Below, one piece after another: positions 20,216-64,000 of a stretch of DNA of 64,000 bases (positions are counted from its first letter, which is position 1; every line of letters begins with the position of its first letter). A program made the translations under genes and the position numbers. Source of the DNA: Escherichia phage FFH2; sequence record KJ190158; one strand, 5' to 3'. Under the pieces are notes generated by a model. It did no database searches. It worked only from the letters and a program-made list of their open reading frames with translations, and was not told the DNA's origin.

Positions 20216-20254
20216 TTTTAAAGGGGCTTCGGCCCCATTTTAGAGGTTAGAATA

Positions 20255-21343
20255 ATGGCTGTATTTAATGCTGAGAACACCGCTCATAAAACTGGTGACT
20301 ATCCGCTGTTTCTAGGACAGCAAATGGGTATGTACGACTCTATCAACAAAAAATATCCACAACTGTTTGAACTATACAAAAAACAAAAAGAACAAGACTG
20401 GGCAGAGGATGAAGTGGATTTGTCGCAATCTATTTCAGATTTTGTAACATGCTCCAAGTCAACTTATGATGTGATGGTGCAGACCTTGATGTGGCAATGG
20501 GAGGCTGATAGCGTTGCGGCAAGATCGATCATCTGCCTCTTTTCACCATTCATCACTAATAGTGAGCTTTTCACTCTATTGATGAAACAGTCAGAGATTG
20601 AAGTTCTTCACGCACTAACTTACTCAGAGATTGTTAGACAATGCCTCCCCAATGCCCGTGAGATTATAGAAGAGATTCAGGAAAACCAAAACGTTCTGAG
20701 CAGATCTGGCGTTATTGTCAAATACATGCAAGAGCTTGAGGTTATTGGTGCAAAATACCGACTGGATCCTTCTAGTGTTAAAGAAGATATTGTGCGGAAA
20801 TGCATTCTTAGAGCGCTTTTTGCACTTTTAGCCCTGGAAAGTATTGAGTTTATTGCAAGTTTTGCATGCACTTTCGCAGTAGCTGAACAGGGTATTTTTG
20901 TTCAGGTGGCGCAGCTTGTTCAAAAAATCATGCTTGACGAAATGCTACACTCGAAAGGTGATTTTGCCATCATTGATATCCTGCTTAATGATCCGGCATG
21001 GGAGAAAAGCTTCCTTGAGATAAAAGGGGAGTTAAAAGAGATTCTTGATGAAGTACGAACCAAAGAGTACGGTTGGAGTGACTATATTTTCAGCGAAGGA
21101 AGAGCGATTATAGGTCTTAACTCACCGTTGCTTAAAGAATGGGTTGACTATAACTGCTCACCAATTTATGATTACTATGGCATCGACAAAGACTTTGTGC
21201 CGCCAACAAAGGACCCTCTACCGTTTATGCAGGTGTGGATGAAACCTTCATTGCAACAGACGGCGAACCAAGAAATGTCGAACACTGACTACCGCGTCAA
21301 CACAACTGTTAACGACGCTGAAGAAGAAATTTGGGAGTTTTAA
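20255..21343 (+). CDS. nrdB: ribonucleotide reductase class Ia beta subunit
   Basis: 362 aa directly after nrdA; ExxH iron-ligand pairs (EVLHA, DEMLH). Confidence 0.82.
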   Translation: MAVFNAENTAHKTGDYPLFLGQQMGMYDSINKKYPQLFELYKKQKEQDWAEDEVDLSQSISDFVTCSKSTYDVMVQTLMWQWEADSVAARSIICLFSPFITNSELFTLLMKQSEIEVLHALTYSEIVRQCLPNAREIIEEIQENQNVLSRSGVIVKYMQELEVIGAKYRLDPSSVKEDIVRKCILRALFALLALESIEFIASFACTFAVAEQGIFVQVAQLVQKIMLDEMLHSKGDFAIIDILLNDPAWEKSFLEIKGELKEILDEVRTKEYGWSDYIFSEGRAIIGLNSPLLKEWVDYNCSPIYDYYGIDKDFVPPTKDPLPFMQVWMKPSLQQTANQEMSNTDYRVNTTVNDAEEEIWEF

Positions 21344-56074: not shown

Positions 56075-56614
56075 TCAACACTTTTTGTACTCCACCACGA
56101 TAATATCCATATCAAAAGTGGCAAGGTTAATAACGTCCTCTACGTGCTCCCACTTCAAACCGCCTATGCCGCACCCGATCTTAGGGATGTAGAATGGTAA
56201 AGTCGATCCACTGAATACCTCATTGACTAGCTCAAAGCCTTTCAGGATTGAGAAATATTCAGCATTAGGTCCTGGGTAGAACTGAGTATACAGATTGATT
56301 CCGTAGACAATACCTCTCGGAGATAAGTGCTCCCATCGGGAGAACGCACCCAGTTTACTTAGGCAACCATGTCTGGTCTCTTTGTCAGCTGCCAATGCTT
56401 GAGGGAACTCACGGGCAATCTGTTTTGCTATCCCCTTGCCCATTGTGTGGAAGCAGTTACAACCGTGGATCAGGTGACCAGCACCACTCTTAAAAAGGGA
56501 GATTAAATCTCCCTCTACAGTATCAATAATCACGGTATGCCAGCTCCTCTTCCACAATTTCAAAAAACTCATCCCAACCTTGTGGCATATTTGAGTTACC
56601 GAAGTGGCTTTCAT
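56075..56614 (-). CDS. macro-domain protein, Poa1p-like (ADP-ribose derivative phosphatase/hydrolase family)
   Basis: HGCNCFHTMGKGIAKQIAREFP and IPKIGCGIGGLKW match the Poa1p-like macro signatures (N-C ... MG.GIA and GCG.GGL.W); start uncertain (possible GTG near 56533). Confidence 0.65.
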   Translation of the reverse strand: MKATSVTQICHKVGMSFLKLWKRSWHTVIIDTVEGDLISLFKSGAGHLIHGCNCFHTMGKGIAKQIAREFPQALAADKETRHGCLSKLGAFSRWEHLSPRGIVYGINLYTQFYPGPNAEYFSILKGFELVNEVFSGSTLPFYIPKIGCGIGGLKWEHVEDVINLATFDMDIIVVEYKKC

Positions 56615-56948: not shown

Positions 56949-57016
56949 CTTAGTTCTCCGGGTTCAACAGGTGGTGGCGCTACAGGAAGATCATAAAACA
57001 TAGCTATCACAGTCTC

Positions 57017-57214
57017 TTACACAGGAATTGCTTCAAACAGGCCGTTATCTATACCGTCCTTCAGATAGAGATTATATTCTATGTCGGTATCTGTGTAAAG
57101 GGCAGCATCCAGCATTCTATCTGTGAGTCCATCCATTGGGTGGAGAAACCACCACCCACGCCAGTCAAAGTAACAGCCTGGTGCATCTTCTCTTACACGG
57201 ATTCGATAAATCAT
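57017..57214 (-). CDS. hypothetical protein (65 aa)
   Basis: Co-oriented ORF. Confidence 0.35.
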   Translation of the reverse strand: MIYRIRVREDAPGCYFDWRGWWFLHPMDGLTDRMLDAALYTDTDIEYNLYLKDGIDNGLFEAIPV

Positions 57215-57310
57215 GGGCAGTGGCCTCCTGTTAGTTATACATCCCAGTTTTCTTCGTTCATCACGTCCTCCCGTTCTATGAAGTTATAATTGCACACCTT
57301 TCAACCTGTG

Positions 57311-57727
57311 TCAACAGAAAACTTCAACAAATTCTTCCACAGTTTTAATGTCGTGGGAAAAAGGTTTACGGCTATAACGGGCAATAGCACTATCAACCAC
57401 CGCCCGGTACTCTAAATCTTCAGAGTATTTCATGAAGCATTGTAGCGTCTCTGGACAGATAGCTAAATAGCTCCACCACCCCTCTTCAGATTGGTAGTCG
57501 AATCCCATACTCTCCAACCATGAAGCGTACACACCTGCACCCTCTAGCCAGTGGGTATTTTCATCAAGAAATTTATTCACCGACATGTGTGCTTCCAGGC
57601 ACTCGTCAAGCTCTTTTCCGTTAACCAGCCATGCACTGACTGTGGCGCATCCGAGGTCTACAGATTGAGTTGACAGGTTGTATTGGTCATAGTTCTCAGG
57701 TTTAACAATGATATCTTCTAATGTCAT
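57311..57727 (-). CDS. hypothetical acidic protein (138 aa)
   Basis: Co-oriented ORF. Confidence 0.4.
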   Translation of the reverse strand: MTLEDIIVKPENYDQYNLSTQSVDLGCATVSAWLVNGKELDECLEAHMSVNKFLDENTHWLEGAGVYASWLESMGFDYQSEEGWWSYLAICPETLQCFMKYSEDLEYRAVVDSAIARYSRKPFSHDIKTVEEFVEVFC

Positions 57728-57789
57728 TTTTCAGATCTCCTTATACAAAAATGCCCCACCCTTTCGGGCAGGGCTATGTTAACTAGATG

Positions 57790-59016
57790 TTAAAACGGTA
57801 TGTCATCATCAAAGGCGTACTGTGCTGGATTCTGATCCATCGGGTCATCTTCCTCATCATTTACAGGAGGAGCGTCTACAGTGTTTTGCTGTGGAGCTGC
57901 TTCCTGTTTGGCAGCCTGAGGTTCTTGATGGTCAGTTGACCCAGCACCGTTCTTGATCCAATCGTACAACGGCTCAGCCAGATTAGTCAAGACATCTTTT
58001 GCTTCTGCAGTAATTGCCACTGCAAAATCATCAACTTTCGTTTTCTTGTCAATACGGCGACAAGCGTTCAACACCGCATTACCGACACTGGCACCTACTT
58101 CATCTTCAGTTCGGTTGGTGGCTTGAGCATACTCTTTCTTAAGCTCAATGGTGACTACGTGCAGTGTTTTAGCCACTCCCAGTGGGTCGTCTACCTTAAA
58201 CCCGCGATCCAGGATGATCTGCAACGCATTGATGCTATGCCCCGTTTCCACACCGATAGGGTCGTAAGAGGATTTACGCTTGCCACCAGATCCTTGAGTG
58301 CCGTTCTCTGCCTTAGGGGGATAGGCCTTGAAACCACTGATAATGTTTCCGGTGTCTTTGTCAACAATGGCTGCAACACGACCACCTACCACCAGGTCTT
58401 TAAGCTGCTCATCAGTTACAACCATAGCACCTTCGCCAATCTTGTGGTCATTAACAGTAACCACGTTGCCAACAATCTGAGTCACATCACCATAGATGCG
58501 TAAAACGTCCTGATTGGCATTCTGCTGAGGTTTCTGCTTCTGGCCTTGTGATTGTGCACCTTGTTGCTGTTTTTGCTGCTGAGTCGCTGCTGGAGCCTCT
58601 CCTGCACCCAGCTTAACCATCTTAGCCAGTGAGCCCTTGTAATAGGTCTTACCGTTATGCTCGTTTGCCTTCAAAGGGATATTTACGATCCATCCTGGCG
58701 TTACGGTTTCCCACTTGTCATCAATCTTAACAGAGACAGAGTCTTGATGACCTGGTTTAAGCAGCTTATCACCCATGCTGATCCAGACTTCTTCACCACC
58801 TTGAAGCAGGTTATCAGAGGAATCCAGTTCAGAAATCAGTAAAGAGATGGTGTGGCTGGATTCAATTTTCTTACCTTGCCACACAGTGGTTTTAATACCT
58901 GTTGTAGGATCAGCACCTTTAATAGGCTTGATGCTAACACGTTTAATCATGCCGTGAGCTAGTAAAACAGTTTCACGCGGATTCATTGGGTTAGCGAATT
59001 GTTGAATAACGCTCAT
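57790..59016 (-). CDS. putative ssDNA-binding protein with bacterial SSB-like C-terminal tip (DDDIPF)
   Basis: C-terminus ...AFDDDIPF matches the E. coli SSB acidic tip; Gln/Gly-rich linker; sits in the replication cluster near the DNA polymerase. Confidence 0.55.
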   Translation of the reverse strand: MSVIQQFANPMNPRETVLLAHGMIKRVSIKPIKGADPTTGIKTTVWQGKKIESSHTISLLISELDSSDNLLQGGEEVWISMGDKLLKPGHQDSVSVKIDDKWETVTPGWIVNIPLKANEHNGKTYYKGSLAKMVKLGAGEAPAATQQQKQQQGAQSQGQKQKPQQNANQDVLRIYGDVTQIVGNVVTVNDHKIGEGAMVVTDEQLKDLVVGGRVAAIVDKDTGNIISGFKAYPPKAENGTQGSGGKRKSSYDPIGVETGHSINALQIILDRGFKVDDPLGVAKTLHVVTIELKKEYAQATNRTEDEVGASVGNAVLNACRRIDKKTKVDDFAVAITAEAKDVLTNLAEPLYDWIKNGAGSTDHQEPQAAKQEAAPQQNTVDAPPVNDEEDDPMDQNPAQYAFDDDIPF

Positions 59017-59381
59017 TATTTGTCTCCTTGTTCTTCGTTAGTGCTTGCCGTGTGTGCGAACCCTGCTTGAATTAATTTGTCCTGAACTTGAGCCAACAGG
59101 CCCATTGCAAAACTTGTGGTCCCAGAGAGGGCCATCAGCATATCCCGTTGTTGAGCTACCCAACCTAAGGCATAGTCCAAACGACGATATTTTTCTTCTT
59201 CACGCAGAGCCTGAAATAATTGTTCAGCCTCCGGTTGTTGTGTGAGCTCCTGAAGTCTTCCCATGAAAGAAGAAAGCACTAGCAAAAGAGACACTTGATC
59301 TTTACTTAACCCTAAGAAAAATTCTTGAGGTTGTTCTTGCTCGTTCATCGCAACCGACTCTTGATCGTTCATTTGTTCCAT
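59016..59381 (-). CDS. hypothetical protein (121 aa)
   Basis: Start/stop overlap with neighbours. Confidence 0.4.
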   Translation of the reverse strand: MEQMNDQESVAMNEQEQPQEFFLGLSKDQVSLLLVLSSFMGRLQELTQQPEAEQLFQALREEEKYRRLDYALGWVAQQRDMLMALSGTTSFAMGLLAQVQDKLIQAGFAHTASTNEEQGDK

Positions 59382-59464
59382 TATGGAATCTCCGATTTTA
59401 TTTGAACAACATAGAAGGAGACACTATTTTAGCATCCCCTTCTGTAAATTACAATAGGTATTTG

Positions 59465-59710
59465 TTAGCCAATCACTTCGAAAGTTCCCCAATTCCCGTC
59501 CAGCAGGCAGGTGATCGGATCCCCATCGTCGTCAAAGATTTCAAAGTTTTCAGCATCCAGGATGTGGCCCTCGAACACAATACTTTCGTCGCCACCACCA
59601 GAGATAACAGCGTATTCCTTACCTTGAGTCAAGTTTTGACACCCTTTGCCACCAAAACCTACTTCAACACAACGTACTTTCTGTCCTGCGCGAGCAACTA
59701 CTTCAGTCAT
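59465..59710 (-). CDS. hypothetical protein (81 aa)
   Basis: Co-oriented ORF. Confidence 0.35.
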   Translation of the reverse strand: MTEVVARAGQKVRCVEVGFGGKGCQNLTQGKEYAVISGGGDESIVFEGHILDAENFEIFDDDGDPITCLLDGNWGTFEVIG

Positions 59711-59727
59711 CTTAAGGTCTCCTGATA

Positions 59728-60048
59728 TTAATCGTCAAGTTCAAAATAGATTTTAACAGCTTCATCGAAGATTGGAATCCCGATGTTGTTGATAAGCTGC
59801 CAAACTACCATATCTTTACCTGGATCTGGGAGAATGTCAACCTTTCTCCATGCGCTGTATACCCAGTTCGGACCGCCTTCTGCACTAACTGGCAGATTTT
59901 CACCAGCCTCCTGTAGATACTTATACAGCAAAAGATATTCTGGATACTCCAGAACACTGTCCTCTGTAGTATATAGCAGTTCACGGTATACTTTTAAGAA
60001 CCCTGCTGGGGTGATGTTTTCAGTCTTCATTTGCTGCTTCTCCTGCAT
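59728..60048 (-). CDS. hypothetical protein (106 aa)
   Basis: Co-oriented ORF. Confidence 0.4.
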   Translation of the reverse strand: MQEKQQMKTENITPAGFLKVYRELLYTTEDSVLEYPEYLLLYKYLQEAGENLPVSAEGGPNWVYSAWRKVDILPDPGKDMVVWQLINNIGIPIFDEAVKIYFELDD

Positions 60049-62560: not shown

Positions 62561-63403
62561 CATCTGTTCAGGTAGGTCGTTAAGCTACCCCGCACCATTA
62601 CGTGCATAGCCATACAGTTTCCTGTATGGATCGGACTACCTCACTGCCTTGGTAACAAGGCACCTCCCATTTCGACCGCACTTGCTGGCCTACTCTACTC
62701 GCTTCTTCACACCAACCTATGTTGGAGCTATGCTTTCGATAGTCTCTGAACGTTACTACCAGGTGTAGTTTTTAGAGATATGTTTCCACTGTCTTCTTTG
62801 CTTTATAGCCCTGACGGTCTCATAAGGATATCCAAGATCCCTAATCTCGCATTGTCGTAGACCACTCTGCAACAGTTCGCAAATCTCTATTACCTCATCT
62901 TCTGTCAGCACAGCGTTAGCATTATACTCACCAACTGGCCTTACTCTGAGGTCATTATCATAGGCGTGCTTGATATTTCCACCAGGGGTGGTCCATTCTA
63001 GGTTCCAGTATGCATTGTTGTACTTATTCCCATCCTTATGGTTCACCCATGTGAGTCTTTCAGGATCTGGGTTTGATACAAAGCATTCAGCAACCAGGTG
63101 GTGGACACCTTTTGTGCACTGCTTCCCCTCGATTAGCATGGTTACGCAAAGGTAACCTCTACCATTATCAAAACAAAACATTGTTGTATGATCACGTTTC
63201 GATAAAGGTATTGTTCCATCATCAAACACGGTATACCCGTGATAATCAGCTGTTCTAGCCATTTTAACTACACCCCTTTAGTCTTCGCTGCGGATTAGCA
63301 TATTGAGCTTTTACCATACTCAGGTGTAAAAGTCAACTTAGCTTCCCCGTCAATTAAAGAGGTTATTCGACATAGATTACTCTATGAAGCCACAATGTTA
63401 TTT
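62561..63403 (-). mobile_element. putative group I intron in the DNA polymerase gene, carrying an HNH homing endonuclease
   Basis: 843-bp insertion exactly before motif C; upstream exon ends in U (CAT), intron ends in G; the upstream frame stops immediately after the junction. Confidence 0.6.
62756..63262 (-). CDS. HNH homing endonuclease (intron-encoded)
   Basis: VNHKDGNKYNNAYWNLEWT HNH motif, similar to the nrdD-intron endonuclease. Confidence 0.7.
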   Translation of the reverse strand: MARTADYHGYTVFDDGTIPLSKRDHTTMFCFDNGRGYLCVTMLIEGKQCTKGVHHLVAECFVSNPDPERLTWVNHKDGNKYNNAYWNLEWTTPGGNIKHAYDNDLRVRPVGEYNANAVLTEDEVIEICELLQSGLRQCEIRDLGYPYETVRAIKQRRQWKHISKNYTW

Positions 63404-63997
63404 ATGGTAATAAATAATACGACGAACACCTTCATCGTACCACCCACGCTTCACCATTTGGTGGTGCATGAGTATCCCAACTAAGTCACACAACGATGCA
63501 CCACCATTTTGTTGGTATGCATTAAGTAAAGAGTGTTTAGATCGGGTCCAGATGGCATGACCATCAAAAGAGTAGATAAACTTCTTACCCGTTGCTTCCC
63601 AGAATTTCTCCAGATCCTCTTTACGGCCCTTAAGACCAGGGTTGGCATCCCAAAGCGCATCGATTACCCTTTGTCCCAACTCTGGAGAGATGTCCAGCAT
63701 ATCTGCAACTTTATCTTTTTGTGCCCCGTACATAACCCCATACGTGATAGGTTTACCGTCGTTACGGGACACCTCTCTGCCTGCTACTTTTGTATATGCC
63801 TCAGCATTGTTTTGGTGTGCGTCTCCGTTACTTACAACATCATAATACAAGCCGTTGTCGAACTCAAAGGCACCCCAAGCCCCGATAAGCTGCTCTAAGT
63901 TGGACCCGTCAATACCGATCTCAAAGTATCCAGGAGGAACACCCCACAGACTACGCATCTCTTTACCCATAACCACTTTAGGAGATGGTTTAGGCAT
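63404..63997 (-). CDS. family A (T7-like) DNA polymerase, 5' exon fragment (motifs A and B); N-terminus lies beyond window end
   Basis: GIDGSNLEQLIGAWG...FDNGLYYDVVSNGDAH (motif A region) and RNDGKPITYGVMYGA (motif B) parallel T7 gp5 GLDASGLELRCLAHF...RDNAKTFIYGFLYGA as recalled. Confidence 0.75.
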
Positions 63998-64000
63998 GTT

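Follow-up and report, generated by a model that had tools for sequence, protein, structure and literature searches.

The 64,000-nucleotide stretch of Escherichia phage FFH2 DNA analysed here (the window) carries, on its minus strand, an ATG-initiated open reading frame for a 408-aa protein, identified from the ORF listing and its translation (Table 1); the plus-strand reading of the same interval is riddled with stop codons. The translation ends in ...DQNPAQYAFDDDIPF*, and the end of the coding sequence, ...NPAQYAFDDDIPF, is followed by a TAA stop codon. The protein matches PHROG 4477, annotated as 'unknown function', over its full length (residues 1-408 against profile positions 1-393, E = 2.8e-173). 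Over the surrounding 3 kb, the window matches rV5-like E. coli myoviruses (genus Vequintavirus) at 98-99% identity; the counterpart in rV5 is gp209 (ORF214, annotated 'hypothetical'), and that in JLBYU08 is JLBYU08_126, which its depositors labelled 'putative single-stranded DNA-binding protein'. Sixteen GenBank records (MG0656xx) titled 'Campylobacter phage', with C. jejuni as host, are also 98-99% identical to window positions 57000-60000; they have the look of E. coli phage genomes that were mislabelled or arose from contamination.

Table 1. Coordinates of the SSB-like gene, its predicted domains and adjacent features in the window
Feature	Position	Strand	Remarks
Terminator-like hairpin GCCCTGCCCGAAAGGGTGGGGC and T-run	57743..57774	-	16 nt past the stop codon; pattern match
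CDS, SSB-like protein, ortholog of Bas52_0087 / rV5 gp209 / PHROG 4477	57790..59016	-	408 aa; stop codon 57790-57792
SSB-Ct type tip FDDDIPF, residues 402-408	57793..57813	-	
Insertion site of 640 bp in rV5 and Bas50	57796..57797	.	Within the Pro-Phe codons
Disordered acidic Pro/Gln/Glu/Asp-rich linker, residues 358-401	57814..57945	-	pLDDT < 50; composition
Four-helix bundle, residues 250-357	57946..58269	-	Family-defining motifs D252-x2-G-x3-GH-x2-N and G308-x3-G312
Codon Y351 (escape Y351C in Bas52)	57964..57966	-	Conserved in close clade only
Codon D252 (escape D252V in Bas52)	58261..58263	-	Asp in 92/105 family members
Second small beta-barrel, residues 170-236, acidic pI 5.0	58309..58509	-	Secondary structure, alignment gap
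Gln-rich disordered linker, residues 140-169, AATQQQKQQQGAQSQGQKQKPQQNANQ	58510..58599	-	pLDDT < 50; sequence
OB-fold domain 1, residues 1-139, basic pI 9.1	58600..59016	-	Near-invariant H55, K123, Y126
121-aa helical protein, PHROG 7310	59016..59381	-	Stop overlaps the SSB-like start codon (ATGA)
Sigma-70-like promoter match, TTGTAA-17-TAAAAT with TG	59426..59454	-	Upstream of the two-gene unit; weak, consensus match only

The gene belongs to a long block of minus-strand genes and lies a few kb downstream of genes that the record annotates as a 'gp4/SIO1-like' primase-helicase and a 'T7-like' family-A polymerase. It is translationally coupled to a gene for a 121-aa protein, homologues of which precede long-form members of the family (GAP31_234, and 113-aa genes in the metagenomic phages L011 and L012, E = 1e-10 to 1e-12) and are absent from phi92; this small protein may be a partner or regulator of the SSB-like protein. 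Its annotation as an SSB in JLBYU08 was rejected, because it matches no family beyond the function-unknown PHROG 7310. The hairpin and promoter matches that flank the two-gene unit are no commoner than such matches in shuffled sequence. Elsewhere in the family, one short-form homologue directly follows genes for a Toprim primase, a polymerase-like protein and a T7 gp5.9-like protein. The wider neighbourhood includes genes for a macro-domain (Tk.4-like) protein (56075-56614, minus strand) and a DUF7238 protein (59728-60048, minus strand), and another DUF7238 gene (L012, 7114-7389) immediately precedes the SSB-like cassette of an unrelated phage contig. The family-A polymerase gene is interrupted (window ~62870-64000, minus strand, and beyond; L016, 1-803; L002, 11836-14787): it is annotated as a two-piece join in Bas52 and as separate polymerase ORFs in rV5 (gp223 and gp220, with small ORFs between). 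An intron, a split gene or an element resembling an intein could account for this.

An AlphaFold2 model built on an alignment of 29 sequences contains three confident domains separated by disordered segments. The N-terminal OB fold is the probable main ssDNA-binding domain; residues 170-236 are predicted to follow the strand order b1-b2-b3-short helix-b4-b5 typical of OB folds, form a barrel that is missing from short-form relatives such as phi92 gp156 (an alignment gap in P0052-P0056), and are named OB-fold-2 in a preprint on the DRT10 defence system (bioRxiv 10.64898/2026.04.29.721553). The best fold matches are to SSB, RPA and PriB-type OB domains; a Foldseek comparison with gp2.5-like DUF2815 structures returned weak matches (E about 0.08-0.2). 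Structure prediction, proposed in the sequence-only reading as the check for OB folds, finds OB-type domains at 1-139 and 170-236. The Gln/Gly-rich linker described in that reading exists, but between these two beta domains and not before the tail: the pre-tip segment (358-401) is rich in Pro, Gln, Glu, Asp and Ala, with a single Gly, and the tail as a whole has a pI of 4.05 and pLDDT < 50 over residues 361-402.

That reading was also right in finding no obviously canonical SSB core. The folded domains matched nothing in sequence searches of Pfam, NCBIfam, PADLOC or the PDB; a Pfam search with the 408-aa protein gave no match to PF00436 at E <= 1, and TIGR00621 scored 12.7 bits against a cutoff of 53.95, with its alignment limited to residues 326-408, in the tail. 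Of the marks of a canonical SSB, the protein has the OB-fold DNA-binding core (as predicted structure) and the disordered linker with a terminal acidic D-D-D-[ILV]-P-F tip, and lacks a core match to PF00436 or TIGR00621 above the curated cutoff. Compared with E. coli SSB (PF00436 / TIGR00621; PDB 1kaw, 1eqq), the core has no sequence-detectable homology, and the layout differs, with two OB-like domains and a four-helix bundle in 408 aa as opposed to one OB fold in 178 aa; any oligomerization of the phage protein is probably through the helical domain and not, as in E. coli SSB, through the OB fold. The canonical phage SSBs compared (HK620, Vibrio phage BT-1011 and ACG-M12) are single-OB proteins of 150-180 aa that are recognizable or annotated as SSBs, whereas this family is a multi-domain sequence orphan. 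Homology between OB-fold domain 1 and the SSB of the T1-like phage ACG-M12, which share 'NE(R)EHNGK(T/V)Y', was considered and dismissed (BLASTP E = 6.6, non-significant).

The missing homology to characterised SSB cores, the extra four-helix domain of unassigned function and the conserved, translationally coupled small partner gene would also fit a protein that is not a replicative SSB at all, such as an OB-containing recombination mediator, an annealing factor or an N4SSB-like transcription co-activator, whose SSB-like tail merely reaches SSB-coated DNA or SSB clients. We consider this very improbable: Pfam and PHROGs revealed no similarity to the Rad52, RecT, Erf, Sak or Sak4 families; the top fold matches are OB domains of the SSB, RPA and PriB type; and an alternative SSB is absent from the genome. 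The complete genome of JLBYU08, which encodes a ligase, RNase H, exonucleases, two helicases, a polymerase and enzymes of nucleotide metabolism, contains no second annotated SSB, and in tblastn with the SSBs of E. coli, a Vibrio phage and a T1-like phage, with T4 gp32 and with T7 gp2.5, the sole match was to the tail of the SSB-like gene.

The terminal six residues are identical to the tip of E. coli SSB, as the sequence-only reading had stated and the translation confirms. E. coli SSB is the one PDB sequence that the family profile matches, through the last ~30 residues only, and the profile consensus, 'eppfDfDDdiPF', lines up with the final ~12 residues of that protein. Conservation in an alignment of close relatives peaks at the tip, and a PPMDFDDDIPF ending is seen in many family members. 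Conservation of the tail among relatives, which had been named as a further check, is extensive: 124 of 150 representatives of the family retain the tip, at identities as low as ~30%, as [ILVMT]PF in 105 and as an acidic xPF, xPW or xDF ending in 19; four others carry the tip followed by an extension, and the remainder are mostly fragments or have one extra residue. Since six fixed terminal residues are expected by chance at a rate of about 1e-8 per ORF, and since the tip is both the most conserved segment and so widely kept, its identity to the host tip is not fortuitous; the tail is the hallmark of the PHROG 4477 family. The C-terminal tip of SSB is the hub through which about 20 bacterial genome-maintenance proteins find ssDNA, and a phage protein with an exact copy of the tip can plug into this hub or jam it.

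A word-indexed search found 56 homologues, and 241 clusters were recovered at E <= 1e-3 when 1.84 billion representatives were searched with a profile. Members occur in the Vequintavirinae (rV5, GAP31, PVP-SE1/SSE121 and Klebsiella KB57/KP12-like phages), in the Stephanstirmvirinae (phi92-like), in Certrevirus (phiTE) and in Erwinia phage Hena1, and a few of their records already bear an SSB label. Two architectures are represented: a long form of ~350-420 aa, to which the window protein belongs, and a short form of ~260-300 aa without the middle barrel (phi92 gp156). The window protein has the common order of OB1, optional OB2, four-helix bundle, acidic disordered arm and [ILV]PF tip, and its D252 belongs to the motif with the highest conservation in the family, D-x2-G-x3-G-H-x2-N.

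A preprint of 30 April 2026 (bioRxiv 10.64898/2026.04.29.721553) identifies an orthologue, Bas52_0087 of the BASEL phage Bas52 (RudolfGeigy, MZ501102), as the 'SSB-like' trigger of the DRT10 (UG17) reverse-transcriptase defence. In that work, phages escaping DRT10 carried D252V or Y351C in Bas52_0087; added wild-type copies of the gene strengthened restriction; arabinose-induced expression of Bas52_0087 alone was non-toxic to E. coli and insufficient to activate DRT10; and overexpression of the host exonuclease SbcB (ExoI) weakened restriction of Bas52. The authors propose that Bas52_0087 competes with or displaces SbcB. Their Phold and AlphaFold2 layout consists of two OB folds, a four-helix bundle, a disordered region and an FDDDIPF C-tip. 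Bas52_0087 (QXV84166.1) and the window protein are of equal length and identical at 405 of 408 positions, with only three conservative substitutions (V333A, A369T and A401S); tip, predicted architecture and synteny with bas52_0086-0088 are the same, and both proteins have D252 and Y351, which fall in the four-helix bundle. As this protein, with its architecture and tip, has already been reported in the form of a 99%-identical orthologue, the finding is known, as a prediction backed by genetics. A DRT10 role of the window protein would be carried over by orthology, the phenotype being that of Bas52. What is added here is the survey of the family, the tail of the primase-helicase, the capped variants of the tip and the absence of another SSB.

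The reading that best accounts for these observations, and that we regard as likely, is that of a phage SSB carrying the host tip, in agreement with the independent preprint on the orthologue. The gene product would be the phage's own predicted ssDNA-binding protein, of a lineage missed by SSB sequence models. Its basic N-terminal OB fold and second OB-like barrel would bind ssDNA at intermediates of phage replication and recombination; the four-helix bundle, to which the DRT10 escape mutations map, would assemble the protein or contact a partner; and the long acidic disordered arm would present FDDDIPF for docking by readers of the SSB-Ct peptide. ExoI/SbcB and other host proteins that interact with SSB are candidate readers, and the effect of SbcB dosage in the DRT10 genetics points to a reader of the tail on the host side. 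During infection DRT10 responds to this protein, either directly or by way of its effect on the handling of ssDNA, as the genetics of the 99%-identical Bas52_0087 show. That work suggests that bacterial immunity watches for interference with the SSB hub.

The same genetics, together with the exactness of the copied host tip, could be read differently: competition with host SSB would be the main job of the protein, ssDNA binding being secondary or absent, and titration or displacement of, for example, ExoI/SbcB, RecQ or PriA would shield the phage's DNA or halt DNA transactions of the host. Such a mimic had been offered as the alternative to a phage SSB in the sequence-only reading. The SbcB competition or displacement proposed in the preprint and the modulation of Bas52 restriction by SbcB dosage agree with it; we nevertheless think it unlikely, as three folded domains, two of them OB folds, kept over about 241 clusters exceed the needs of a decoy, the gene occupies a position in the replication module and is the sole SSB candidate, and naturally capped tips are common. 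The lack of toxicity on induced expression, unexpected for an effective competitor at an essential hub, weighs mildly in the same direction. Of the two roles offered at the outset, that of an SSB with the host tip is favoured; a role within the phage replisome had been overlooked.

The case for that role comes from the primase-helicase. The rV5-type protein, encoded just past the window (> 64000; L001, 14362-15001; L008, 181-2259), ends in ...VPGFEDDETPF, and the corresponding tails are ...DNDTPF in GAP31, ...DEDTPF in SSE121 and ...DDDTPF in Klebsiella phages (KP12/K54), with DMDEDTPF and DFDNDTPF among the endings of relatives. An acidic tail with a terminal Phe is thus present both on the SSB-like protein (...AFDDDIPF) and on the gp4-like primase-helicase. 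In T7, as is well established, gp2.5 and gp4 both dock on the polymerase by Phe-ended acidic tails (the work of Kong and Richardson, cited in PMC5928155); like T7, the phage encodes a family-A polymerase and a gp4-like primase-helicase. No sequence similarity was found between the window protein and T7 gp2.5, and the tip is of the bacterial type, DDDIPF, compared with ...DGDF in gp2.5. Because two replisome proteins share acidic -PF tails in a T7-like arrangement, a reader within the replisome is plausible beside host clients, and, given the similar tip on the primase-helicase, the T7-like replisome of the phage itself would very likely be a reader too.

A stronger version of this argument, in which the protein is an SSB whose FDDDIPF is read mainly by the T7-like polymerase and recombination proteins of the phage, and identity to the host tip reflects ancestry or convergence instead of a hijack of host proteins, is a serious contender, though in our estimate a less probable one. 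Apart from the tails of the same-type primase-helicases and the annotated kinship of polymerase and primase-helicase to those of T7, it draws on the phage's own ligase, RNase H, exonucleases and helicase, owing to which host SSB clients would be little needed, and on the SSB of phage HK620, whose last six residues (NDYPPF) recruit the phage partner Sak4 (PMC5928155). The SSBs of HK620, Vibrio phage BT-1011 and ACG-M12 are likewise phage SSBs with a conserved terminal hexapeptide for partner recruitment. However, the tip and its flank are far closer to those of the proteobacterial host than to T7 gp2.5, the DRT10 genetics tie the protein to SbcB, a host SSB-Ct client, and the phi92 primase-helicase ends in ...ISAGSY, with no acidic tip, even though the phi92 SSB-like protein has the tail. 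A phage SSB carrying the host tip, with candidate readers in both host and phage, stays the preferred interpretation.

The tip is not free in all relatives. In rV5, in Bas50 and in the largest cluster of the family (P0001, 533 members), the protein runs past the Phe as ...DFCDDIPF-APVGLQYGKSRIHAL. Comparison of rV5 with the window locates a 640-bp insertion, comprising a 15-residue extension and an HNH/endonuclease VII gene (L002, 6791-7438), within the DNA that in free-tip phages encodes the tip as ...GATGATGACATACCGTTTTAA; substitutions are clustered shortly before the insertion site, at 57809-57826. A group I intron was discounted as the nature of the insertion: none of the junctions that would give back ...IPF* has a terminal G, the HNH ORF fills the insertion to its end, and no intron was detected with Rfam.

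The extension follows the motif AP[IV]GL[QP]Y-x4-[IL][HY]x[ILF], 15 residues directly after the tip, and is also carried by other family members, by several canonical phage SSBs (the OB-fold SSB of Vibrio phage BT-1011 and the T1-like ACG-M12 SSB) and by the primase-helicases of GAP31 and Klebsiella K54/KP12; the loci concerned are the 57796/57797 site, L002 (rV5), L003, L004, L005, L006, L017 and L021. It is found with and without an adjoining HNH gene. Over its first seven codons, eight loci show 120 third-position differences against 26 at first and second positions, with 115 synonymous and 14 non-synonymous codon pairs and stop codons in the other frames, so the extension is a selected peptide, under purifying selection at the level of its amino acids. 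Read-through into, or overlap with, the HNH gene was rejected as its origin on the strength of the same codon pairs and of its presence without an HNH neighbour in BT-1011, phi92 gp156, GAP31_233, SSE121 and P0048. A further idea was that the SSB-like protein and the primase-helicase of one phage carry or lack the extension together; this fits the window type and GAP31, but is broken by SSE121 (extended and bare, respectively), KP12 (bare and extended), rV5 (extended and bare) and phi92 (no primase tail), and we have therefore dropped it as support for a shared reader.

HNH genes lie directly 3' of tip-ending genes in rV5 (gp208; L002, 6791-7414), Bas50 (Bas50_0089; L015, 2444-3067) and GAP31 (GAP31_256; L017, 12888-13385), and at L003 2622-2963, L005 3120-3629 and L011 9161-9670, the tip-ending neighbours being SSB-like proteins, canonical SSBs and primase-helicases. 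As these HNH genes belong to at least two unrelated families, their placement suggests that the conserved tip-coding DNA is a recurrent homing site. No mention of the extension motif was found in the literature searched, and the capped-tip module and its association with homing endonucleases appear to be undescribed.

In canonical SSB-Ct binding, the pocket holds the terminal Phe by its free carboxylate, so the cap should block the tip or re-target it; the viability of capped phages shows that a free tip is dispensable. A speculative synthesis, to which we give little credence at present, is that the tip, borne by both the SSB-like protein and the primase-helicase, is a shared plug for one socket in the phage replisome and for host clients, which a mobile, HNH-spread cap switches off or re-targets. 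The HNH endonucleases would use the ultra-conserved tip-coding DNA as their homing site, the cap would cross between unrelated tip-bearing genes, and capping could let a phage escape defences triggered by the free tip or by what it does to ExoI. The family lends itself to clean tests, since phages that are nearly identical in other respects naturally have free-tip (Bas48, Bas52 and the window) and capped-tip (rV5 and Bas50) versions.

One further protein in the window, the product of a 373-aa ORF at 20222-21343 (plus strand), has an acidic or aromatic tail, ...DAEEEIWEF. By its position relative to JLBYU08 it is probably the beta subunit of ribonucleotide reductase, the C-terminal tail of which normally binds the alpha subunit.
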